Part shown: piece by piece, positions 3,724 to 32,931 of the stretch
How positions within the stretch are numbered: the stretch's first letter is position 1
How the letters are laid out: each line of letters starts with the position of its first letter
Source of the DNA: Acidobacteriota bacterium
Lineage (GTDB): Bacteria; Acidobacteriota; Thermoanaerobaculia; UBA5066; Gp7-AA6
Length of the DNA: 48,250 nucleotides
Direction of reading: 5' to 3'
Assembly: GCA_046728075.1 (NCBI GenBank)
Contig: JBKPDV010000141.1
Coordinates: 1-48,250, forward strand
The notes under the pieces: model-generated
Databases searched by the model: none
The model's input: only the letters and a program-made list of their open reading frames with translations
What the model was told of the DNA's origin: nothing
Position numbers and translations under genes: made by a program

Positions 3724-4848
3724 TCACGCCGCCAGCAGCGGCAGCAGGCGCTCGAGGGTCTCGAGGCTGTGCGCCGGCAGGAGGAGATCGATGAACGGCA
3801 GCGCGGCCGCCATGCCGCGTGCCGTCGGTTCGTAGCGGGCATCTGAGAGGAGCGGATTTAACCAGAGGACCTTTCGGGCCTTCGAGCGGATGGCGCGCAT
3901 CGCGCCGACCAGAACCTCCGTGTCGCCCCGGTCCAGGCCGTCGCTCAAGACGAGGACGACGGTCCTGCCATCCACGGTCATGTTCAGGTAAGCGTCCACG
4001 AAGGCCGACAGGCATTCCCCGATGCGTGTGCCGCCCGACCAATCCGGTACGCCGGCGGAGAGGCTCTCGAGCGTGTGTCCGATCCGGTCCGGCGAGAGCC
4101 AGGGCGTCAGGCGCGTCAGCGCCGTGTTGAAGGCGAAGATCTCTGTGCGGCGCGCAACCTTCTTGAGGGCGAGCAGGAAGCTGAGCAGAAACCGGGTGTG
4201 CGGATCCATCGAGCCGCTCGTGTCGCACAGGGCGACCAGACGGGGTTTCTCGACGGCGCGTCGGCGCCTCGCAAGCTTCAAGAACTCGCCGTCGGTCGCG
4301 ACGGCGGCGCGGAAGCTGCGCCGCGGGTCCATGGTTCCCCGCCCGCGCCCCGGCACGAGCCGCCTGCTCGGCCGCGTTGCGAGCCTCTCGGCGAGGCGCG
4401 CGAGGAGCCTTTCCATCGCCGCCAGGTCATCGGGCGCGCAGTCTTCGAAGGACTTGCGCCGCAGCAGCGCCTCGGGGCTCCAGGCCGGTGCGTCTCCCGA
4501 GGCGATTTCGCGCTCGTTCCGGCCCTGTGCTCCGGATCCGCCCAGAGCGCCGGCGCTCTTGCGGGGCGACTCGTGCGGAACCCGGCGGTCTCGAGCAGCC
4601 CGGGAGACTGCCGCTTCCCGCGGCAACGCGGACCAGAACCGCTCGAAGAGGACATCGAAGGCCTCGGTGTCCCGCCGCCGAATCTTGAGAGAAACCCGGA
4701 GCGTGCGCTTGAACTCCGCCCGATCGAAAATGTCGATCAGCGGGAGAGCGGCGAGCGCGTCCGCCTCGTCCGAAAGAACGACCGGCACGCCCCGCTCCCG
4801 GAGCGCGCCGCCGAACGCGGCGAGTTGCACCGGGAGGCTCGCCTGCAT
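3724..4848 (-). CDS. coxE: CoxE-like VWA domain protein
   Basis: CDTSGSM MIDAS motif, WSGGTRIG, LSDGLD and WLNPL. Start re-assigned to ATG 4848 (TGATG overlap with the coxD stop). Confidence 0.88.
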   Translation of the reverse strand: MQASLPVQLAAFGGALRERGVPVVLSDEADALAALPLIDIFDRAEFKRTLRVSLKIRRRDTEAFDVLFERFWSALPREAAVSRAARDRRVPHESPRKSAGALGGSGAQGRNEREIASGDAPAWSPEALLRRKSFEDCAPDDLAAMERLLARLAERLATRPSRRLVPGRGRGTMDPRRSFRAAVATDGEFLKLARRRRAVEKPRLVALCDTSGSMDPHTRFLLSFLLALKKVARRTEIFAFNTALTRLTPWLSPDRIGHTLESLSAGVPDWSGGTRIGECLSAFVDAYLNMTVDGRTVVLVLSDGLDRGDTEVLVGAMRAIRSKARKVLWLNPLLSDARYEPTARGMAAALPFIDLLLPAHSLETLERLLPLLAA

Positions 4849-5726
4849 CAGCCCGCCGCCGCCTCGACGAGCGCGGCGAGCTCGCCGCCCGCAAACTCGC
4901 GCATGTCGTTTTTGTCCTTCAGAACACAGCCCAGGGTCTGGTGCACGATTTCGGGATCGAGCTCGTCCTGGTGGAGAGTGACCAGGGCCTGCGCCCAGTC
5001 GATCGTCTCGGCTACGCCGGGAGACTTCAGCAGGCGCTTGCCGCGCAACGCTTGCACGAAGCGCGCGATCTGCTCGGAGAGGCGGGCCCCGGCGTCGGGC
5101 ACGCGCGAGCGGATGATGCGGACTTCCTTCTCGAAGCTCGGGTGCTCGATGTAGAGGTAGAGGCAGCGGCGGCGCAGGGCGTCTCCGATCTCGCGGCTGC
5201 GGTTGGAGGTCAGAATGACGTAAGGGACGTGCTCGGCCCGGATCGTCCCGAGCTCCGGGATCGTGACCTGGAAGTCCGAGAGGATCTCGAGCAGAAACGC
5301 CTCGAACCCGTCGTCGGCGCGGTCCACTTCGTCCACGAGCAGCACGGGCGGCCCCTGAACTCGCGTGATGGCTTTTAAGAGCGGCCGTTCGAGGAGGTAC
5401 TCCCGCGAGAAGATGACGTGCTGGAGGCCGGACGGCTCCGCGTGCTCCCCGGCCATCCGGACGCGAAGCATCTGACGCGGGTAGTCCCACTCGTAGAGAG
5501 CTGTCGAGACGTCGAGGCCCTCGTAGCACTGCAAGCGGATGAGCTCCGTGCCCAGCACGCGCGCGAGCACCTTGGCAATCTCGGTCTTGCCGACCCCGGC
5601 ATCGCCTTCGACGAGCAGCGGCTTCTTCATTTCCGTCGAGAGGAAGACGGCCGTCGCGATCTCCGGCTCGGCGATATAGCCGTGCCGTTCCATCTCCTCC
5701 TGCATGGCGAGGATCTCGGCCTTCAT
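4848..5726 (-). CDS. coxD: CoxD-like MoxR AAA+ ATPase
   Basis: Walker A EGDAGVGKT, RLQCYEGLD, Walker B LLVDEVD, and DALRRRC. Confidence 0.92.
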   Translation of the reverse strand: MKAEILAMQEEMERHGYIAEPEIATAVFLSTEMKKPLLVEGDAGVGKTEIAKVLARVLGTELIRLQCYEGLDVSTALYEWDYPRQMLRVRMAGEHAEPSGLQHVIFSREYLLERPLLKAITRVQGPPVLLVDEVDRADDGFEAFLLEILSDFQVTIPELGTIRAEHVPYVILTSNRSREIGDALRRRCLYLYIEHPSFEKEVRIIRSRVPDAGARLSEQIARFVQALRGKRLLKSPGVAETIDWAQALVTLHQDELDPEIVHQTLGCVLKDKNDMREFAGGELAALVEAAAG

Positions 5727-24037: not shown

Positions 24038-25552
24038 ATGCATTCCTCCCGGACAAGCGGCGAGAAGCCAGATCCCAACGGTTTTCTGACCGGGGAGTGG
24101 ACCGTGACTCCATCGCGAAACCTCTTGGTACGCGGCGAGGAGCAGGTTCGGCTGGAACCGCGAGTGATGGACGTGCTCGTCCACCTCGCCGAGCGCGCGG
24201 GGGAAGTGGTTTCGAAGGAAGATCTGGTGGAGCGGGTGTGGGAGGGCCGGTTCGTCACCGATGACGTGCTGACGGTGACGATCTACGCTCTGCGCAAAGC
24301 GCTGGGGGATGACGCGCGCCGCCCGCGGTACCTGGAGACGGTTTCGCGGCGAGGGTACCGCTGGATCGCGCCGGTGAAACCCGAATCGACAGAGGCAGCC
24401 ACTCCCCCGCCGGAAGCCCAACCGTCACGCGCCGTGGCCTGGCGGACGCTGGCCGGGACTGTTGCGCTTGTGTTGTTCGCAGCGGGCGCGTCCTGGATGC
24501 TGATAACTCCACGCCGGGGCCGGCACGTTCCGACCGCCGAGGCGCAGGAAGCGTACGTGAAGGGCCGCTACTTTCTCGATCAGCGCTCGATCAAGGGCTG
24601 GCAGCAGGCGCTCGAACAGTTCGAGCGCGCCGTTGCTCTGGACCCGAAGTCCCCCGCCGCTCATGCCGGGCTGGCAGACGCCTATTCGGCGATGTCGGAC
24701 TTCGGCGTTGCCTCGCCGGCGGAGATGCGGCCGCGGGCGATGAAGGCGGCACAGCGTGCTCTGGACCTGGACCCGCAATCGGCGGAAGGGCACGAGGCGC
24801 TCGGCCGGGCGCAGTTCTTGTTCGACTGGGATTTCGCGAGGGCACAGGGCAGCCTGGCGCGGGCAGTGGCCCTGGACGCGGAATACATGCCCGCGTACCA
24901 GGCGACGGCGTGGCTGAAGTCGGCCCGAGGCCAGCACGCCGAGGCCATAGCGGCGGCACGACGGGCGCTGCAGCTCGACCCGGTGAACACGGCGCGTTAC
25001 ACCGAGCTGGCGTGGGTCCTCGCGCTCGGCGGCCACTACGACGAGGCGCTGCATGAGATCGAGAGGGCGCTCCAATTGAACCCGAGATCCTTCAAGACCT
25101 GGCTGATGAAGGGATGGACCTACGAGCTGACCGGGCAACCGGACGCGGCTTTCACCGCCTACCGGGAAGGCATGCGCATCGGCGGCGTACCGGAAGAGAC
25201 GCTGCGGCGCATTGAAGGCGTGTATCGCGCCGAAGGGCTGGCGGGCTATTACCGCGGATGGCTCGAACAGAAACCCCGCAGCGGCAGCACGCCCATGTCG
25301 GACACGTTCCGCGCCATGGTTTACGTCCGAGCGGGCGAGCTGGATCGCGCCATCGAATCGCTCGAGAAGGCTTACCGGAAGCGAGAGAGCGCGCTGGCGT
25401 GGGTGAACGTCGAGCCCAGCTTTCAGCGGCTGCGGTCCGATGCGCGGTTTCAGCAGATCGCCGCGCGCGTCGGAACGTCACTTCCGCTTGCTCGGGATCT
25501 GGCTGCGCCACCGGCTGGCGGCTCGCCCAAGGGGGCTCGACCGCCAGCCTGA
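24038..25552 (+). CDS. CadC/ToxR-like winged-helix regulator with TM segment and TPR repeats
   Basis: LEPRVMDVLVHL...VW...LRKALGDD..YLETVSRRGYR; hydrophobic segment; multiple A..LDP TPR units. Confidence 0.9.
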   Translation: MHSSRTSGEKPDPNGFLTGEWTVTPSRNLLVRGEEQVRLEPRVMDVLVHLAERAGEVVSKEDLVERVWEGRFVTDDVLTVTIYALRKALGDDARRPRYLETVSRRGYRWIAPVKPESTEAATPPPEAQPSRAVAWRTLAGTVALVLFAAGASWMLITPRRGRHVPTAEAQEAYVKGRYFLDQRSIKGWQQALEQFERAVALDPKSPAAHAGLADAYSAMSDFGVASPAEMRPRAMKAAQRALDLDPQSAEGHEALGRAQFLFDWDFARAQGSLARAVALDAEYMPAYQATAWLKSARGQHAEAIAAARRALQLDPVNTARYTELAWVLALGGHYDEALHEIERALQLNPRSFKTWLMKGWTYELTGQPDAAFTAYREGMRIGGVPEETLRRIEGVYRAEGLAGYYRGWLEQKPRSGSTPMSDTFRAMVYVRAGELDRAIESLEKAYRKRESALAWVNVEPSFQRLRSDARFQQIAARVGTSLPLARDLAAPPAGGSPKGARPPA

Positions 25553-25646
25553 TCCCTCGCGCGCTCGCTCCCAAACTGCTACCGAGTCGACGAAGCAAGG
25601 GACTCTTCGCGCACTTACGCTTCCGTGGAACAGCAAAAGAAGGAAC

Positions 25647-25673
25647 CTTCAGCGGAGCTTCATCTTTTCCTCA
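25647..25673 (+). promoter_or_regulatory. Three CYTCA direct repeats at 11-bp period (candidate wHTH site)
   Basis: CTTCA at 25647, CTTCA at 25658 and CCTCA at 25669, between the wHTH gene and the downstream gene. Confidence 0.5.
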
Positions 25674-25745
25674 GGACCTCCATGGTTGAGGATTCGTAGT
25701 TTCCCGTCAGTGGCGGAGATGTTTCCCCGCCCGGGAGGACGACAA

Positions 25746-27503
25746 ATGTGGAGGAACCCCGTGGGTGTTCTGGTTGGAGCGGTCCTGGTGTTGCTGCTCT
25801 CCCCCTTGGCGTCCGCCCAGCCAGAAGACGTGCAGCGGCGCATGAGCGAGGTCCTGCGGTACACCGGAGTGGAAAATCCCGTCCCTGGCGACGTCGCGCG
25901 GATGTCGGAGCTGTGGACCCGGGCACAACAGCCGGGGCTCGCCCGCGAGGAGCGGCGGTTGGCCTTTCGCGACATGTACGTGCTCTACGCCAGGCTGCAC
26001 GGCCGCGACCTGACCGACCGCCCACAGGCGCTGGACGGTTTCACTCAATTCGTCATGACCACGTTCGAGGGGGGCGGGCGCATGGACCTGACGTTGCCCG
26101 AGCCGCGCGGCAAGCCGGCCGGCAAGTATTTGCACGTCGAGACCCGGGGAATGGGCCGCACGCCCCTTCTGCTGATCTCCGACCTCGGTGTGGACGGGGG
26201 TAAGTTGTACGACTCCTTCGCGCGCCGGCAGGCGAACGCCTACACGATGCACATCGTCACACTGCCGTACGCGGGCGCGGCGCGTCCGCTGCCCTGGCCC
26301 GAGAAGCTCGACTATGCGGGCCGACCGTGGCTCAACCAGATCGAGCGCGAGCTTCTGGCGCTCCTGGATCAGCCGAGGATGAAGGGAATCACTGTCATCG
26401 GCACTTCGGGCGGCGGATACTTCGCCGCGCGTCTCGCGCTGCTGCGGCCGAAACAAGTCCGGCGGGTCGTGTCGGTGCACGCGCTGGTGAATTCTCCGCT
26501 GCGCTCTCTGACCGATCCCGATGCGCCGGCGACGCCCGATCAGCGCCTCGCGCGAGTCAGGTCCGTTTCACCTGCTCCGATGTTGTTTCCCGTGGCCCCC
26601 GTGCCTCCGCCGGAGGAGCTCCGGCGGCTGATCGCCGATCCCAACTCGATGCACCCCACCGCGCGCAACTGGATGGCCTTCGCGGTGAAGGACACGGCCG
26701 TTTCGCGCGCATGGACCCTGGAGGCGCTCTCCGGCGGCTTCTTCGTGCCGAGTCTGGAGTACACCTTCGAGTTCCTCTCCGCTGATCTCACCGAACAGAT
26801 GAAAACACTCTCCGTGCCGATGCTCCAGATGGGCACCTGGCACGATGACGGCTCACCTCGGCAGAGCGCGCCGAGCGTCTCGCAATGGGAAGAGATGAAG
26901 CTCCTGTACCCCGAGATTCCACTCACGGTGGTGACCTTCGACGACACCCGCGCCTACGTCAGCGCCGATGCGCCGGAGGAATTCGACCGCGCGCTCGCCG
27001 ATTTCCTCGCCGGCCGCCCGGTGCGCGGAAAGACCGGGTACAGCCTGCCGCGCGCCAGTCCGCGCGCGTCGGTCATGCAGGCGGTTGCCGGCACCGAAAT
27101 CCAGATCACCTACGGACGGCCGGCAGTCAAGCAGCGCAAGATCTGGGGCGAGCTCGTGCCGAACGGCCGCGTGTGGCGCGCGGGCGCGAACGAGGCAACC
27201 CAGTTCACCTTCAACCGCGGCGTGCAAATCGAAGGTCACGCGCTGCCCGCCGGGACCTACACGTTCTTCGTCGTTCCGGGTGAGGCGGAGTGGACTCTCC
27301 TCTTCAACCGCGTGCCGCGTCAGTGGGGCGCGTTCAACTACAACCCCGCGTTCGACGCGCTGCGCTTGACGGCAAAACCGGCGGAGGCCGCCCACGAAGA
27401 GTATCTGCGCTATGACGTCGAGCCCGAGGGGGTCAACGCGGCGCTCGTGGCGCTCTCCTGGGAAAAGCGACGGATTGCTTTCCGGATCCAGGCCGGACAG
27501 TGA
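25746..27503 (+). CDS. Secreted alpha/beta hydrolase-like protein fused to C-terminal DUF2911
   Basis: Signal peptide; VIGTSGGG elbow; RASP...YGRPAVK.RKIWG.LVP..VWRAGANEAT and QWGAF.Y motifs; RBS GGGAGG before ATG 25746. Confidence 0.82.
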   Translation: MWRNPVGVLVGAVLVLLLSPLASAQPEDVQRRMSEVLRYTGVENPVPGDVARMSELWTRAQQPGLAREERRLAFRDMYVLYARLHGRDLTDRPQALDGFTQFVMTTFEGGGRMDLTLPEPRGKPAGKYLHVETRGMGRTPLLLISDLGVDGGKLYDSFARRQANAYTMHIVTLPYAGAARPLPWPEKLDYAGRPWLNQIERELLALLDQPRMKGITVIGTSGGGYFAARLALLRPKQVRRVVSVHALVNSPLRSLTDPDAPATPDQRLARVRSVSPAPMLFPVAPVPPPEELRRLIADPNSMHPTARNWMAFAVKDTAVSRAWTLEALSGGFFVPSLEYTFEFLSADLTEQMKTLSVPMLQMGTWHDDGSPRQSAPSVSQWEEMKLLYPEIPLTVVTFDDTRAYVSADAPEEFDRALADFLAGRPVRGKTGYSLPRASPRASVMQAVAGTEIQITYGRPAVKQRKIWGELVPNGRVWRAGANEATQFTFNRGVQIEGHALPAGTYTFFVVPGEAEWTLLFNRVPRQWGAFNYNPAFDALRLTAKPAEAAHEEYLRYDVEPEGVNAALVALSWEKRRIAFRIQAGQ

Positions 27504-27528
27504 GACACGGTTCGAAAGCGGAGGACCC

Positions 27529-28083
27529 TTACTGCGCCCCCCGTTTGGTTGGAGGCAGCTTGCGATAGTTGACGAAGAACTCCTGCTGGCCGTTGCCTTC
27601 CGCCTGGGTCACGAGCGCCTCGTAGAGCTTCGAGGCGCCGATCGCCTGCATTCCCTTCCCTTCCTTCGAAGGCACGAAGGCCATGTCGCGCCACACGTGG
27701 ACCTCGCTCGGAACCCCGGCAATCCCGCGCGCCGAGAGCCAGAAGCTGGCGTAGCCGAGACGATTCCATTCGTCGTAGTCGAACAACTTCGCGTCGGTCG
27801 GCTTGAGTGACTGGATCAGTCCCACCAGCCGATCGAGGTCAGGTCCAGGTTCCACCGTCCAGCTCGGATTCGGCCGGCCCGAGTAGACCGAAAGGGTGAC
27901 GCGGATACTCACCGGCGGCTGTTCCTTTCGGGTCGTTGCCGCCACGCCCCGATCTACCGCTCCCGTCTTCTGCTCGGTGCTCTCCTTCGTCTGAGCCCAG
28001 GCACCGGCGGCGGCCCACACGAATATCACCGCCGCCCCCGCTATGGTCATCGAGATCGCGCTCGCGCACCGTGCTGCTCTCAT
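27529..28083 (-). CDS. Secreted hypothetical protein with YSGRPNPSW motif
   Basis: Signal peptide with AWA cleavage site; RBS AGGAAGGAG; motifs SVYSGRPNPSW and RLGY. Confidence 0.78.
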   Translation of the reverse strand: MRAARCASAISMTIAGAAVIFVWAAAGAWAQTKESTEQKTGAVDRGVAATTRKEQPPVSIRVTLSVYSGRPNPSWTVEPGPDLDRLVGLIQSLKPTDAKLFDYDEWNRLGYASFWLSARGIAGVPSEVHVWRDMAFVPSKEGKGMQAIGASKLYEALVTQAEGNGQQEFFVNYRKLPPTKRGAQ

Positions 28084-28138
28084 GCTGCAGCTCCTTCCTT
28101 TCTGAAACGAAACATCCTTTCCGGCAGGCCGCGCCGGT

Positions 28139-29764
28139 TCATTGGATCACCACCACCGACTTGTCGACGCAGTAGTAGGTGCAAAAGATCGAGTAGTCCA
28201 GGCAATAGTCAGGGCCGACGTACTTCCGGTTGGCGGTCTCCGGGCTCGTGATGGCGTTGCCGGAGGCATCCTTGTCCGTCGCAGGGGCCGGCCCGGGCTT
28301 ATTCGACCAGCGGCCATTGTCATCTAGTCGGTACCAGTGGTAGTCCATCTGGCTACAGCCGGGGCTCCCGGGGGCGATCACGAGCGCCACCAGGTGCGAG
28401 CAAGTGGCGCAGCGCTTTTCCTTCGCCTCGACGAGGCCGTCGGCCACGGCACCGCTTCCCGTGCCGGCGCAGGTGGTGGGCGGAAACACGCCATGAGCCT
28501 GGCCGGGTTGAGCGAAGGTGTCGGTCATGATGTCGGTCGAGTAGTTGTAGCAATTGTTGACCGGTTGGTGCGCGGGCGTGTTCCACAGGCCCGGGTTGTA
28601 AGTTGGCGCGCCGCTCGACGCCACGATGACGCTCGTCGAAGGGCTCGTGTTGCCGGCGACCACCTGCACGGCGGTCACCTTCTTTCCAGGCTGTAAGACG
28701 TAAGCATCACCGAGGCCGAGGGTGACGCAGCCGCCGTTGCCCGCACCTTCAGCGATCTTGGTTCCATCCATGGTGACCTGGACCGTGCTCAGGACAGCAG
28801 TGTCACAGACCGTGACGTACTTGCCGCCCTGGCACGTCGGCTTGACGGAAGGTGCCGGCGGATCCTTGAGCGGCGTGACGCTGCCGTCGGGCAGTGACTT
28901 GAGATCGCAGAGCGCCTGCATGGACGAGTACTTCCTGGCCGGGTCGATCGGAGGGCTGATCTTGAAGATGGTTGAGGTGTCGAGGGCCACGCCACCGCCG
29001 ACGGTGACGGGGCCGGTCCCGGGATCGGCAAAGATCCTGACAAGAGTGCCCGTCACCAGGTCCGTGAGGAGCACAGCGTCGCTTCCCCCCACGAGCGGCT
29101 TTCCGATTGTCGGCGTCGCGAGGCTGTTGGGCCGCGCGGCCACGGTCTCCTTGCCCGACCAGTCGCTCTTGAAGACCGGATCCCTGCAAAGCAACATCAT
29201 GGCGTCGTAAGCGTCGCCGGCCTTCAACGTCGGCACGCCGATGCGCGCAATGGTGTAAGGGGTCATCGTGTCCCAGGTGGACGAGGACGACGCGTTCTTG
29301 CGAAGAGTGACCGTGGCGCCCTGGACGACTCCATTCACGCGAACGACTTCCTGGCACTCGTAGAGCGGGGGCATCACGACGGGCATCGGGAGCTTCCCGC
29401 CAGGGGCGACGCTCGCCGTGATCGCGCTCACCGTCACGGGGTCGCGCGTCCTTTCACTGATCCGGTTGCCGACGATCTGGGCCGCCGTCACGACGTCCCC
29501 GGTATGAACAACGGAGGGCAGCTTGATGGTTCCCCACCCCATCCAGATCGGCACCTGGATCACCTGGGTTCCGTTGACGTAAACGGCGATTTTCGAGTCG
29601 CGGTCGGCCCCGGAAAACGCGATCGTCTGCGCGCAGTTGTAGATCGGCTTGTCGATGACCGGCGGCGAGAGGCTCGGGTCCAGCACCGGCCCGCAGCCCA
29701 CCGGAAGAAGAACGACGAGGACGGCAAACGGCGTGAGCACATGCCGCAAGAGTCTCGGGCTCAT
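28139..29764 (-). CDS. Lipoprotein with four tandem ~90-aa beta-rich repeats and a C-terminal Cys/His domain (putative papain-like enzyme)
   Basis: Lipobox-like LPVGC; repeats P.(I/V)..P....V; C-terminal NNCYNY, TFAQPG, DYHWYR and WSNKPG; RBS GGAGGAGGT. Confidence 0.8.
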   Translation of the reverse strand: MSPRLLRHVLTPFAVLVVLLPVGCGPVLDPSLSPPVIDKPIYNCAQTIAFSGADRDSKIAVYVNGTQVIQVPIWMGWGTIKLPSVVHTGDVVTAAQIVGNRISERTRDPVTVSAITASVAPGGKLPMPVVMPPLYECQEVVRVNGVVQGATVTLRKNASSSSTWDTMTPYTIARIGVPTLKAGDAYDAMMLLCRDPVFKSDWSGKETVAARPNSLATPTIGKPLVGGSDAVLLTDLVTGTLVRIFADPGTGPVTVGGGVALDTSTIFKISPPIDPARKYSSMQALCDLKSLPDGSVTPLKDPPAPSVKPTCQGGKYVTVCDTAVLSTVQVTMDGTKIAEGAGNGGCVTLGLGDAYVLQPGKKVTAVQVVAGNTSPSTSVIVASSGAPTYNPGLWNTPAHQPVNNCYNYSTDIMTDTFAQPGQAHGVFPPTTCAGTGSGAVADGLVEAKEKRCATCSHLVALVIAPGSPGCSQMDYHWYRLDDNGRWSNKPGPAPATDKDASGNAITSPETANRKYVGPDYCLDYSIFCTYYCVDKSVVVIQ

Positions 29765-29929
29765 GATCGTGACCTCCTCCGATTTTCGTTGATCTCTCTC
29801 GATCGCTGCGAATGGAGATCCCTCTCACCTAGATCGCAGGAGGCCTCCGAAAGGGCTAATCCGAATCGGAAAAACTCAAAACATTTTGAAACAGCGGCCT
29901 TATTCGGAGACGCCTCTGAGCCTGGCGCC

Positions 29930-32572
29930 TCAACGATCCCGCAGCGCCCGGACCGGATCGATCCTCGACGCGCGCCAGGCCGGCAAAAAGCACGCAGCGA
30001 GCGCGGCGGCCGCCATCACCACGAAGGCACAACCGAACACCATCGGGTCGTGCGGACTCACCTTGTAGAGGAGGTCTCCGAGCAGGCGCGTCGATCCCAG
30101 CGCCGCCGCCGCGCCGAGGAGGACGCCGGCGGCGGTCAGGACGAGGCCGTGTCTCATCACGAGCCGCAGGAGGTCCGAGGCTGCCGCGCCGAGCGCCATG
30201 CGCAGCCCCAGCTCGCGCGCGCTCTGCGACACCGCGTACGACATCACGCCATAGAGGCCGATGGTGGCGAGGACGAGCGCGAGGCCGCAGAAAATGCCGA
30301 CGAGCGTGAGGGCGACCGTCTGGGCACCGGACTTGCGATCGACCTGCTGCCGCATCGTCAGCACCTCCCCCGCCGCGAGGCCGGGATCGAGCGAGTGGAT
30401 CTCGCGCGAGAGCGCAGACGCCATTGCCCCGGGAGCCAGGCTCGTCCGGATGTGCAGGATCACGACGCCCGCGGGATTCTGGCGCAGCGGCACGTAGAAG
30501 AACGGCTTCGACGACTCCAGGAGGGACCCGTACTTGGACATCTTCGAGACGCCGACGACCTGCACGGCCCGACCCTTCAAGTGGAAGATCCGGCCGAGCG
30601 GATTCGAGCGAGGCCAATACTTCGCCGCCATCGCCTCGTTCACGACGGCCACGGGAGGCGCCGATTCGTCGTCCGCCCGAACGAACGGGCGCCCGGAGAC
30701 GAGCGGAATTCCCATCGTGGCGAAGAACTCCGGGCTGACTTCGTCATACTCCGGCGCCGGCTGCTCGGCTGCGCCCGCCACATAGCCCTCGATCACGATC
30801 GGAGCGGAGGAATAGGTCCGATAGCTAAAGGGCGTGATCCGCGCATAGGCCGCGCCCCGGACGCCGCCGATCGCCTGGACGCGGTCGAGGAGCTCGTCCT
30901 GAAAGGCTCTCTTGCGCGGCACGTCGTAGCCGGCGGAGGAGAGATCGATCGCCGAGATCAGAACGTTCTCGGTCGAAAAGCCGGGGCTCGCGGACCGCAT
31001 CCTCTGCAGACTCTTGACGAGCAGGCCGGCCCCCACGAGAAGCAGAAAGGAAAGCGCCACCTGGAGGAGCACCAGAGCCGAGCGGAGACGCGTTCGTCCG
31101 CGTCCCCCGACGACGCCGCCCGATTCCGACTTGATCGAGGACGCGAGGTCGATCTTGCTCGCCGGAATCGCGGGGACCAGGCCGAACAGAAGCGTCGTGG
31201 CCAGGCAGTCGCCCCCACTGATGGCGAGCACGCGCCAGTCGATTGATGCCGGAAGATAGAGCGGAACTCCGCGCGGCGGAAGCACCCGAGCGAGGAGGTT
31301 GCGGCATCCGTACGCCACGGCGAGGCCGCCCGCCGCGGCCATGGCGGAAAGGATGAGACTCTCCGTGACCAGCTGGCTCACGAGGCGGACGCGTCCGGCG
31401 CCCACCGAAAGACGAATTGTCATTTCCTGCCGACGCGCGAACGAACGAACGAGCAGGAGATTGCTGACATTCGCGCAAGCGATCAAGAGCACGAAAAAGG
31501 CCACGACGAGCGCGATCCGGAGCGTCGAGAAGAGCGCTCCCGCGTTGTTGAACGGAGTTTTCCACAGCGGAAACAGCTCCACGCTCTGGCCCTTGTTCGT
31601 CTCGGGATATTGCAGCTCCAACCGTTTCGCGGCGGCCGAGATCTCGGCCTGCGCCTGCGCGCGCGTCACGCCGGGCTTCAACTTCGCATAGCTCTCGATC
31701 CAGCGGGCGCCCCGGTCTTCGAGCTTGTAGCCGCCCAGGTCGAACGTCTCCTGCATCGACGCCGGGACCCAGAACTGCATCGCGTAGCCCACGAACGTGC
31801 CGTTGAAACCCTCTGGAGCCACGCCGATGATCGCGTGCGGCACCCCGTTCATCAGCTGCGTTTTTCCAAGAATTCCGGGGTCGCCGTGGAAGCGTTCCGT
31901 CCACATCTTGTAACTGATCACGACGACGGGGTGGGCGTTGCGGCCCGACTCTTCGGCGGCCTCGAACCCGCGCCCGAGAATGGGGCGCACGCCGATCGCC
32001 TCGAAGTAGTTCGCCGACACGATCTGGCCGCTCACGCGCTCGGCCCGGTCGCCGACGGCCAATGTCGAGCCGGTGATCTTGTCCACCGTGAAAGATTCGA
32101 AGTGGCCCGAGCTCCGGCGCAGATCCAAAAAATCGGGCCACGAGAGAGCTCCGTATTCGCCCCCCGTCTTGCCGGCGAGAGCGACCATCCGGTCCTGGTC
32201 GGCGACGAGAGCGTAGGGGCGCAAAAGAATCCCTTCGATCCAGCTGAAGACCGCCGCGTTGGCGCCGATCCCCAGCGTCAGACAGAAAATCGCCAGGATC
32301 GTGAAACCCGGGCTGCGCCAGAGCATCCGCAGGCCGAACCGGAGATCCTGCGCGACCTGCTCGAGCCAGAGGAGTCCCCACATCTCCCGCGTGATCTGCT
32401 TGATCAGGCCCATATTGCCGAATTCCCGGCGCGCGTTCGCGGCCGCGTCCGCCGGCGACTCGCCGCGCGCGACCCGCTCGGCCTCGGCCATGCGCAGATG
32501 CGCGGCCAGCTCCTCATCCAGCTCCTCCTCGCGGCGTCTGCGGCCCGACGGCAGAAGCGCCGAGAGCTTCAC
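29930..32572 (-). CDS. Duplicated MacB/FtsX-type ABC permease (ADOP-like)
   Basis: EELDEELAAHL, QDLRFGLRML, LLIACANVSNLLL, GLYGVMSY.V.Q..RELGLRMALGA and DPVRALR motifs; GTG start at 32572 overlaps the PadR stop. Confidence 0.93.
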   Translation of the reverse strand: MKLSALLPSGRRRREEELDEELAAHLRMAEAERVARGESPADAAANARREFGNMGLIKQITREMWGLLWLEQVAQDLRFGLRMLWRSPGFTILAIFCLTLGIGANAAVFSWIEGILLRPYALVADQDRMVALAGKTGGEYGALSWPDFLDLRRSSGHFESFTVDKITGSTLAVGDRAERVSGQIVSANYFEAIGVRPILGRGFEAAEESGRNAHPVVVISYKMWTERFHGDPGILGKTQLMNGVPHAIIGVAPEGFNGTFVGYAMQFWVPASMQETFDLGGYKLEDRGARWIESYAKLKPGVTRAQAQAEISAAAKRLELQYPETNKGQSVELFPLWKTPFNNAGALFSTLRIALVVAFFVLLIACANVSNLLLVRSFARRQEMTIRLSVGAGRVRLVSQLVTESLILSAMAAAGGLAVAYGCRNLLARVLPPRGVPLYLPASIDWRVLAISGGDCLATTLLFGLVPAIPASKIDLASSIKSESGGVVGGRGRTRLRSALVLLQVALSFLLLVGAGLLVKSLQRMRSASPGFSTENVLISAIDLSSAGYDVPRKRAFQDELLDRVQAIGGVRGAAYARITPFSYRTYSSAPIVIEGYVAGAAEQPAPEYDEVSPEFFATMGIPLVSGRPFVRADDESAPPVAVVNEAMAAKYWPRSNPLGRIFHLKGRAVQVVGVSKMSKYGSLLESSKPFFYVPLRQNPAGVVILHIRTSLAPGAMASALSREIHSLDPGLAAGEVLTMRQQVDRKSGAQTVALTLVGIFCGLALVLATIGLYGVMSYAVSQSARELGLRMALGAAASDLLRLVMRHGLVLTAAGVLLGAAAALGSTRLLGDLLYKVSPHDPMVFGCAFVVMAAAALAACFLPAWRASRIDPVRALRDR

Positions 32573-32931
32573 GGCTCGCTCTCCGCCGGAGGCACCATGA
32601 GCCCGGCAATCGCGACGGCGAGCTGGTCCCATTTCGAACGCTCTGCGGCCAGCTGCCTGCGGCCGGCGGCCGTCAGCCGATAGACGCGCACGCGCTGGCT
32701 GTTCTCGGAAACCTCCCAGTCCGCGGCGACCGCGCCCTGGCGCTCGAGACGGTGCAGTGCGGGATAGAGCGAGCCCGTGTCGACCTGCAAAACGTCCCGC
32801 GAGCCGGCGCGAATCATCTGCGCGATTCCATACCCGTGGCGCGGCCCCCAGCGCAGGGTCTGCAGGATGATCAGATCGAGCGTGCCCTGCAGGATTTCGA
32901 TTCGCGTGACCGGCAGGTCCTTTTTCGTCAT
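32569..32931 (-). CDS. PadR-family transcriptional regulator (acidobacterial type)
   Basis: LQGTLDLIIL..L..GPRHGYGIA and GSLYPALHRLE motifs. Confidence 0.93.
   Translation of the reverse strand: MTKKDLPVTRIEILQGTLDLIILQTLRWGPRHGYGIAQMIRAGSRDVLQVDTGSLYPALHRLERQGAVAADWEVSENSQRVRVYRLTAAGRRQLAAERSKWDQLAVAIAGLMVPPAESEP

Follow-up and report, generated by a model that had tools for sequence, protein, structure and literature searches.

This report focuses on two adjacent genes on the minus strand of a 48,250-nucleotide (nt) stretch of DNA from an Acidobacteriota bacterium (assembly GCA_046728075.1, contig JBKPDV010000141.1), referred to below as the window. Gene 1 (28139..29764) is predicted to code for a lipoprotein of 541 amino acids (aa) in which a signal peptide with lipobox, four stalk repeats and a papain-like C-terminal domain, hereafter the head, follow one another, as delineated from the open reading frame (ORF) and an alignment of relatives. 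Gene 2 (27529..28083), recognized as an ORF directly downstream, codes for an exported 184-aa protein of a family marked by the motif SGRPNP. Our best explanation of this pair, tentative and given somewhat less than an even chance of being right, is that gene 1 encodes a latent cysteine hydrolase restrained by a cognate, prodomain-like inhibitor encoded by gene 2. An enzyme harmful to the cell that makes it, kept with a guard, would be expected to show the pattern observed: the head carries a conserved catalytic set, the partner domain is found in cis, in trans or in both forms, the two strictly co-occur in cellular genomes, their export signals mostly match, and the partner domain is absent from the viral and RHS carriers of the head.

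The head (28142..28612; residues 385-541, 157 aa) was modelled with AlphaFold2 from a 50-row alignment, with a predicted local distance difference test score (pLDDT) of 95.4 and a predicted template modelling score (pTM) of 0.90. Cys405 (codon 28550..28552), the proposed nucleophile in the motif NNCYNY, is residue 23 of the model and opens a helix (23-27); His476 (codon 28337..28339), the proposed general base in DYHWYR, lies in a strand (92-98); and the polar residue Asn488 (codon 28301..28303) in WSNKPG, to which the role of third triad member is tentatively assigned, stands twelve residues after His476 on the following strand (104-106). The original prediction, made from the letters of the window alone, had recognized a papain-like Cys/His layout in this region, and the confident model bears it out, with the Cys at a helix start and the His in a strand; the motifs that it had singled out (NNCYNY, TFAQPG, DYHWYR and WSNKPG) are all present and conserved. 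Indeed, in a head-only alignment of 73 very different proteins, Asn404, Cys405, Asp442, Asp474, His476, Arg479, Trp486, Lys489 and Asp499 are invariant (73/73). Position 488 is His in 71 of the 73 heads and Asn in the remaining two, one of which is the window's own, in agreement with the statement in the same prediction that fused relatives usually read WSHKPG; within the stalked full-length family the position is His in 29/41 and Asn in 12/41 proteins. Asn, not His, at the third triad position is the arrangement of papain, and since papain itself has Asn there, Asn488 would not need to mean an inactive enzyme.

The head model was submitted to an exhaustive fold search with VIA, and the 50 matches listed were classed by their entry titles. 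The top matches were AvrPphB (Z 5.2) and NlpC1 (Z 5.1), with 108-115 residues aligned, values that lie below the Z of 6 under which VIA grades a match as possibly just a common arrangement. Most of the listed matches are papain-like hydrolases, all of them below a Z of 8; about 20 of the 50, the lipoprotein MepS among them, belong to the NlpC/P60-type wall hydrolases, and others are CHAP lysins, Tae3, Tse1, Josephins, streptopain, interpain, C39 domains, transglutaminases and a CdiA-CT toxin; protein glutaminase is also among the fold neighbours. The head of a fused homologue, described below, has staphopain C as its best solved match (Z 5.5, root-mean-square deviation 3.9, 114 residues aligned). 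Foldseek against the PDB returned nothing below an E value of 0.25 for either of the two models. The NlpC/P60 family was tried as a home for the head and rejected: a profile of the 73 heads compared by hhalign with 16 NlpC/P60 domains of the same phylum reached a probability of 0.2%, and Pfam PF00877 matched neither the window's gene 1 nor any of 50 head-bearing proteins. On the basis of the model, we accept that the head has a papain-like layout and appears to belong to no named family.

Gene 2 is separated from gene 1 by a spacer of 55 nt (28084..28138, minus strand), which holds the ribosome site GGAAGGAG ahead of gene 2 and no terminator-like site. Its product begins with a predicted signal peptide (27994..28083; residues 1-30, ending in AWA before Q31), judged by eye and by a hydropathy maximum of 2.32, and bears the motifs YSGRPNPSW (27859..27885; residues 67-75) and LGY (27751..27759; residues 109-111), so that the secreted product with these two motifs which had been read 55 nt downstream of gene 1 is confirmed, the signal region within the limits of an assessment by eye and hydropathy. 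The core of the family starts with a strand, continues with a near-invariant SGRPNPxW, and later has LGY. Gly69, Pro73 and Gly110 are conserved in 33/33 sequences, Ser68 in 31/33 and Trp75 in 30/33, and within LGY the Leu, Gly and Tyr are kept in 30, 33 and 28 of 33, respectively; the motif is highly conserved across phyla. The family is small, with 41 cluster representatives at E <= 1e-3 among 1.84 billion. It is homologous to the N-terminal domain of proteins in which an SGRPNP domain is fused to the head (hhalign probability 98.8%, E 7e-17, 83 columns), a relationship that required profile comparison, since BLASTP between gene 2 and each of two fused proteins aligned just 19-20 residues around SGRPNP. 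SGRPNP domains are also encountered in proteins that lack the head, namely two in tandem (P0121), or one together with ankyrin repeats (P0103), an SBP_bac_5 solute-binding domain (P0101) or the tannase-like DUF6351 (P0106).

Head relatives were located at 521 places by a pattern-limited scan in which each of 185,579 species was represented by one genome. Pairing was surveyed at the best 80 of these 521 loci, all six-frame ORFs of which were searched with hidden Markov models of the head and of the gene 2 family. These 80 loci come from a wide range of bacterial phyla and from several archaea. Versions are present in the cultured, harmless hosts Desulfosarcina variabilis, Siphonobacter aquaeclarae, Fodinibius halophilus and Variovorax ginsengisoli. 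The fused proteins that the original prediction had mentioned do exist: the SGRPNP domain is fused N-terminally to the head in 54/80 loci. Such proteins measure about 300 aa, come from Streptomyces, cyanobacteria, Bacteroidota, Longimicrobium and many other groups, start with ..ITvDiFSGRPNP..LGYRG.. and end with the head, and the reverse order, head then SGRPNP domain, is found as well (P0109). In 48 of the 80 loci such a fusion is directly followed by a separate SGRPNP ORF, in 24 an unfused head is followed by one, and in two (L060 and L072) the head is fused and the partner lies upstream. Four loci have a fused head and no separate partner (L028, L051, L054, and L080 at a contig edge), and two are uninformative, one contig ending 90 nt past the gene (L004) and the other having masked bases directly after it (L006). 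A separate SGRPNP gene consequently adjoins the head gene in 74/80 loci, downstream in 72 and upstream in two, which upholds the expected co-location of the two genes, and an SGRPNP domain is present in cis or in trans in all 78 informative loci. The distance from the stop of the head to the start of the partner domain ranges from -67 to 220 nt. No third conserved gene was found in the flanks of the 80 loci, the best flank cluster reaching 5/80, and the 76 flanking ORFs of 12 loci compared with Pfam are heterogeneous, sometimes comprising insertion sequence (IS) elements, DarT-Macro, a serpin or a Tle1-like lipase.

In the fused loci, most of the downstream partners, about 110 aa long, constitute a subfamily of their own in which FSGRPDPxW and LGYRG are retained. 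A quick tree with weak resolution places gene 2 of the window together with the cis N-terminal domains and with other partners of unfused heads (Shimodaira-Hasegawa-like approximate likelihood ratio test, SH-aLRT, 84-88) and sets most of the trans partners from fused loci apart, a pattern that, as far as such a tree can suggest, is compatible with fission or fusion of genes. By a crude hydropathy assessment of 75 loci, a hydrophobic N-terminus is present on neither protein in 61, on both in four, on the partner alone in eight and on the head protein alone in two, one of which (L002) is borderline at 1.98. In two cyanobacterial loci (L036 and L037) and two from Bryobacterales (L060 and L072), the fused head has no signal peptide and the separate partner has a hydrophobic or lipoprotein-like N-terminus, so that these loci are exceptions to the usual agreement in location between the two proteins. 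Another SGRPNP-head fusion (L082:3599-4429) lies on the conjugative 682-kb plasmid p3 of Rhizobium ruizarguesonis, beside ImuA and a peptidase associated with the SOS response, and a search for a downstream partner at E <= 1 gave none. For a fused homologue, that of Desulfosarcina variabilis, modelling (pLDDT 90.6) yields two domains, each confident, which a long helix connects. The N-terminal one is modelled as strand-strand-helix followed by five strands, with the SGRPNP motif in the hairpin loop that links strands one and two (block pLDDT 89-95), and the best solved neighbours of this domain, 2mct (Z 5.8) and 4r7r (Z 5.1), are structural-genomics proteins without known function.

Outside these cellular loci the head is met without its partner. 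IMG/VR contains 82 head relatives at 77 loci, in giant-virus bins and phages, with 22-43% identity, and none of the 77 viral loci has an SGRPNP ORF at E <= 1e-3. In BFVD, three clear structural relatives were recovered, namely F2Y2U4 (E 5e-12, TM 0.83), M1HB16 and a Hokovirus protein, none of which has a functional name. An Anaeroplasmataceae phage (PV036447.1; L083:1261-3459) encodes, two genes after its holin, a 732-aa protein composed of a signal peptide, a trypsin-like domain and a terminal head, with no SGRPNP gene nearby. The head is also the C-terminal end of two RHS proteins. On the one hand, an RHS-repeat ORF of 1464 aa with an open 5′ end on an IMG/VR contig (L160, 2-4396) has a shortened head at its extreme C-terminus and is followed after 24 nt by a 155-aa signal-peptide ORF (4421-4888) that has no match to the SGRPNP-family profile. 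On the other hand, a 2473-aa protein with SpvB, TcdB_mid and RHS regions (P0126) has its head at 2311-2473 and no SGRPNP domain. Other head carriers recognized with Pfam contain LamG (7/50 proteins), Transglut_core or a ricin lectin. Since the 77 viral loci and the two RHS proteins are devoid of an SGRPNP domain, the head is probably not dependent on the partner and can exist without it, so the partner seems to go with cells that make the enzyme for themselves.

In the window, the head is carried by a long N-terminal portion of gene 1. The signal peptide and lipobox (29693..29764; residues 1-24) end in LPVGC, a less canonical lipobox with an unusual Pro at -3. Because Cys24 is invariant in 41/41 full-length relatives, where it closes a hydrophobic leader of consensus LxAGC in the alignment, members of the stalked gene 1 family are predicted to be lipoproteins. 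The stalk (28613..29668) consists of four tandem repeats of about 87 aa, supported by pairwise hhalign: repeat 1 at 29393-29668 (residues 33-124), repeat 2 at 29126-29392 (residues 125-213), repeat 3 at 28865-29125 (residues 214-300) and repeat 4 at 28613-28864 (residues 301-384). Self-BLAST does not detect these repeats, which needed profile comparison; they are considered real because all six pairs of segments match in profile-profile comparison (probability 74-98%, E 3e-5 to 5e-14, 73-84 columns). Both the lipobox and the four tandem repeats had been read correctly from the sequence at the outset. Weak matches to the Ig-domain Big_6 in relatives are the sole hint of a beta-rich stalk, and among the 82 relatives of gene 1 that were found, none has a Pfam match on the head. 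In one relative (P0048), a lipoprotein stalk with 44% identity over 68% of gene 1 is tipped with a CAP/PR-1 domain (PF00188) and not with the papain-like head. Because this stalk ends in a different domain, the stalk looks like a display platform with exchangeable tips, to judge from this architecture.

The pair is sparsely distributed. The window's genome is a 4.1-Mb bin of 301 contigs, 85% complete, with one copy, and the stalked gene is present in 2/41 related genomes, the window's own included. Relatives with about 50% identity are found in Zixibacteria, Bacteroidales and a Methanomassiliicoccales archaeon. Because of this rarity among related genomes and of these distant relatives, the gene pair is most probably an accessory, mobile cassette. 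PF00877 had no match in the window's genome, at its 85% completeness, nor in 11/12 genomes of the same family; it matched in 24/61 sampled genomes of the phylum, the window's own being counted in the sample.

According to the explanation that we favour, a latent cysteine hydrolase with a cognate inhibitor, gene 1 would be anchored by its lipid and its four Ig-like repeats would hold out the papain-like head, in which Cys405, His476 and Asn488 are proposed to form the catalytic triad. Gene 2 would be co-transcribed with gene 1 and its product exported, and this product, acting as a trans copy of the prodomain, would bind the head on its stalk, in the periplasm or on the cell surface, and silence it until needed. 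The fold class and conserved residues of the head, the homology of gene 2 to the N-terminal domain of the fused proteins and the almost constant pairing in cells are shown; physical binding and inhibition of the head by the gene 2 product are inferred. As a guess, the contact surface may be formed by the SGRPNP hairpin, rigid and rich in Gly and Pro, and by the LGY patch, and the most likely target of the exported version would be a peptide or amide bond of the envelope, e.g., in a peptidoglycan stem peptide or an envelope protein. Several observations weigh against this explanation. A cis and a trans copy of the SGRPNP domain are kept together in 48 loci, export signals mismatch in 10/75 loci, all structural matches fall below a Z of 6 (best 5.2-5.5, 100-118 residues aligned), and AlphaFold2 does not confidently place the N-terminal domain of the fused homologue on the cleft (pTM 0.59). 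In addition, the strong conservation of SGRPNP could equally mark a modification or recognition site. The original prediction had left a choice between a split enzyme/pro-domain and a toxin/immunity pair displayed on the cell surface; homology, fusion and co-location sustain the idea of a dedicated pair, and of the two readings the one akin to an enzyme and its pro-domain appears the likelier.

A toxin-immunity pair is the main rival, although we regard it as rather unlikely. The stalk would then present a toxic head to the envelopes of neighbouring cells and gene 2 would code for an immunity protein in the periplasm by which the producer and its kin are spared, an arrangement that overlaps mechanistically with an inhibited hydrolase and differs in its target, i.e., other cells. 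Much of the distribution of the head is in keeping with such a role, as it sits C-terminally on many unrelated modules (the stalk, LamG, a trypsin-like domain, Transglut_core, ricin lectin) and is the C-terminal cargo of the two RHS proteins, that of L160 being followed after 24 nt by the 155-aa signal-peptide ORF; that ORF has no SGRPNP-family match, however. The immediately downstream position of the partner gene in 72/80 loci, the accessory nature of gene 1 (2/41 related genomes), the presence of the type VI secretion system (T6SS) amidases Tae3 and Tse1 and of a CdiA-CT toxin among the fold neighbours, and the mobile elements, DarT-Macro and Tle1-like lipase near some loci also speak in its favour. 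The proteins of about 300 aa found in 54/80 loci are nevertheless an unusual build for a polymorphic toxin, having neither a signal peptide nor a known trafficking domain and carrying the supposed immunity fold fused to the toxin. Immunity proteins usually diversify, whereas the partner motif is highly conserved across phyla, and the window's gene 1 itself contains no RHS, PAAR, LXG, CDI or similar domain recognized by Pfam and has no match in PADLOC.

Three further explanations share the same observations and each appears far less probable. The SGRPNP domain may be an intramolecular chaperone that folds the head and is here supplied in trans, as lipase-specific foldases are to their lipases, an explanation to which we give little credence. 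Its interchangeability in cis and in trans, its strict co-occurrence with the head in cellular genomes and its N-terminal position, like that of classical propeptides, are what a foldase would predict, but the 77 viral loci and the two RHS proteins manage without an SGRPNP domain, even if the viral heads are distant (22-43% identity), and the head alone folds confidently in silico, which is weak evidence. There is likewise only a slim chance that the partner is a substrate, a precursor that the head would cleave, cross-link or deamidate at the conserved motif, in cis where the two are fused. The extreme conservation of so short a motif (Gly69 and Pro73 in 33/33), the C39 leader peptidases, transglutaminases and protein glutaminase among the fold neighbours, and the tandem SGRPNP domains without a head in P0121 would suit a substrate; the motif, however, is part of a hairpin that folds confidently between two strands (pLDDT 89-95) and does not sit in a flexible linker, genes for a transporter or for maturation are not conserved in the vicinity, and SGRPNP domains are also fused to unrelated ankyrin, SBP_bac_5 and DUF6351 regions. 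Lastly, gene 1 might be a housekeeping peptidoglycan endopeptidase accompanied by its regulator, a functional stand-in for NlpC/P60 lipoproteins such as MepS, its own stalk spanning from the outer membrane to the wall. This too is improbable: a gene missing from 39/41 related genomes searched cannot be their core wall enzyme; most family members moreover have no export signals, and profile comparison with NlpC/P60 gave the 0.2% probability cited above. It would account for the roughly 20 of the 50 nearest listed solved folds that are of NlpC/P60 type, including MepS, and for the lack of PF00877 matches in the window's genome and in 11/12 same-family genomes; NlpC/P60 triads also have a spacing of 12 residues, as from His476 to position 488, which counts for a wall enzyme.

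Regarding expression and genomic context, both genes are preceded by a GGAGG-like ribosome site, and a promoter and terminator scan of 27300-30000 found none. Contigs from soil and rhizosphere metagenomes carry gene 1 and gene 2 together. In one soil metatranscriptome run, three short contigs, 90-99% alike, correspond to portions of both genes, at 27400-27549, 27628-27878 and 28853-29011; they are a weak hint of expression, as DNA carry-over is possible and such contigs can't show one transcript. Upstream of gene 1, on the same strand and after a gap of 165 nt, lies a gene for a 900-aa MacB_PCD/FtsX permease (within 29930-32931, minus strand), whose start is overlapped by a 120-aa ORF (32569-32931, minus strand) resembling, by eye, a PadR-type regulator. 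Clustering of the flanks suggests a similar large upstream ORF in close Acidobacteriota relatives, the 933-aa ORF of L002 being paired with one other locus. On the other side, an ORF on the plus strand (25440-27503) containing an alpha/beta-hydrolase-like region and a C-terminal DUF2911 (E 7e-46) converges on gene 2, the two stops lying 25 nt apart; its true start probably lies downstream of the listed one, as a stretch resembling a signal peptide begins near residue 103.

The system had been put forward as undescribed, and in the searches made neither domain proved to be covered by a curated family, a solved structure or a paper. Neither protein matches Pfam at E <= 0.1, the peptidase C10, C47 and staphostatin families included, or NCBIfam beyond one row at chance level (E 0.14); PADLOC had no match for five proteins; PDB chain sequences gave no meaningful match to either protein, with single sequences or family profiles; and a full-text literature search on the motif strings retrieved no relevant paper among the hits listed. 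A feature search of the ESM Atlas returned unnamed clusters alone, with a recognition of 2050, below the level of most known families, and no model of the protein searched. Head relatives nevertheless turned up at 521 places, in many bacterial phyla and several archaea, with further ones in contigs of giant viruses and phages. The novelty lies in the two families, in the duplication of the partner fold in cis and in trans and in how broadly they are distributed; the principle of a papain-like enzyme with a cognate guard is known. The strict pairing, the duplication in cis and in trans and the absence of the partner from viral and RHS copies lead to a clear, testable hypothesis, in which a latent cysteine hydrolase comes with a guard of its own. 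Should the partner prove to be an inhibitor, a third kind of bacterial cysteine-protease guard would be added to staphostatins and Spi, and the pair would offer a compact enzyme and inhibitor for study in cultured, harmless hosts. A bolder proposition, possible but on balance unlikely, is that SGRPNP defines a new and widespread class of cysteine-hydrolase inhibitor or immunity domains operating in cis and in trans, spread among bacteria and archaea as a mobile two-gene cassette, the unguarded head having been weaponised by viruses and RHS toxins. If this were true, the cytoplasmic fused-plus-free form would be a new latent protease switch, akin to a toxin-antitoxin or defence module.

Several known systems resemble this pair in part. 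With NlpC/P60 and CHAP enzymes and T6SS amidases (Tae3-Tai3, Tse1), the head shares a general fold class and the order of Cys then His, and some members of this group, going by entry titles, are enzyme-binder pairs acting in the periplasm or lipoproteins; unlike them, the head reaches a Z of just 4-5, does not match PF00877 and has a profile probability of 0.2%. The resemblance to RHS and other polymorphic toxins lies in the location of the head at the extreme C-terminus of two RHS proteins and on varied carriers, and in the small gene directly downstream. In contrast with these toxins, however, the head in the window is carried on a lipoprotein stalk, the family is made up mostly of short proteins with the partner fold fused to the enzyme, and the partner family is conserved and not hypervariable.

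Closer parallels are found among bacterial cysteine proteases with dedicated inhibitors. In Bacteroides, the C10 proteases Bfp and Btp are predicted lipoproteins co-transcribed with the staphostatin-like inhibitors Bfi and Bti, of which Bti is exported, and in the staphopain-staphostatin pairs the inhibitor is cytoplasmic; the inhibitor genes of these systems lie up- or downstream (PMC3462683). Like these systems, the window combines a lipoprotein cysteine enzyme with a small neighbour, and staphopain C is the best solved match of a head. Unlike Bfi/Bti and staphostatin, gene 2 matches no Pfam family at E <= 0.1, and whereas the gene 2 family is homologous to an N-terminal domain of the fused enzymes, these inhibitors are not homologous to the propeptides of their enzymes. 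SpeB of Streptococcus pyogenes, a C10 cysteine protease with an N-terminal propeptide, is accompanied by the adjacent and co-transcribed Spi, presented as “a propeptide analogue” (PMC2873492, PMC3462683). Spi is described there as cytoplasmic, whereas the partner is exported here; likewise, there is no match to Peptidase_C10 or any other Pfam family in the window's enzyme, and a stalk takes the place of the propeptide. Both arrangements nonetheless have a small gene on the same strand beside the enzyme gene (55-nt gap in the window; adjacent in 74/80 loci), and in both the free protein is related to an N-terminal domain of the enzyme, as gene 2 is to the fused N-terminal domain (hhalign 98.8%), a likeness that holds at the level of the family, the window's own enzyme being without that domain. 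SpeB-Spi is the closest documented arrangement, followed by staphopain-staphostatin and the lipoprotein C10 proteases of Bacteroides.

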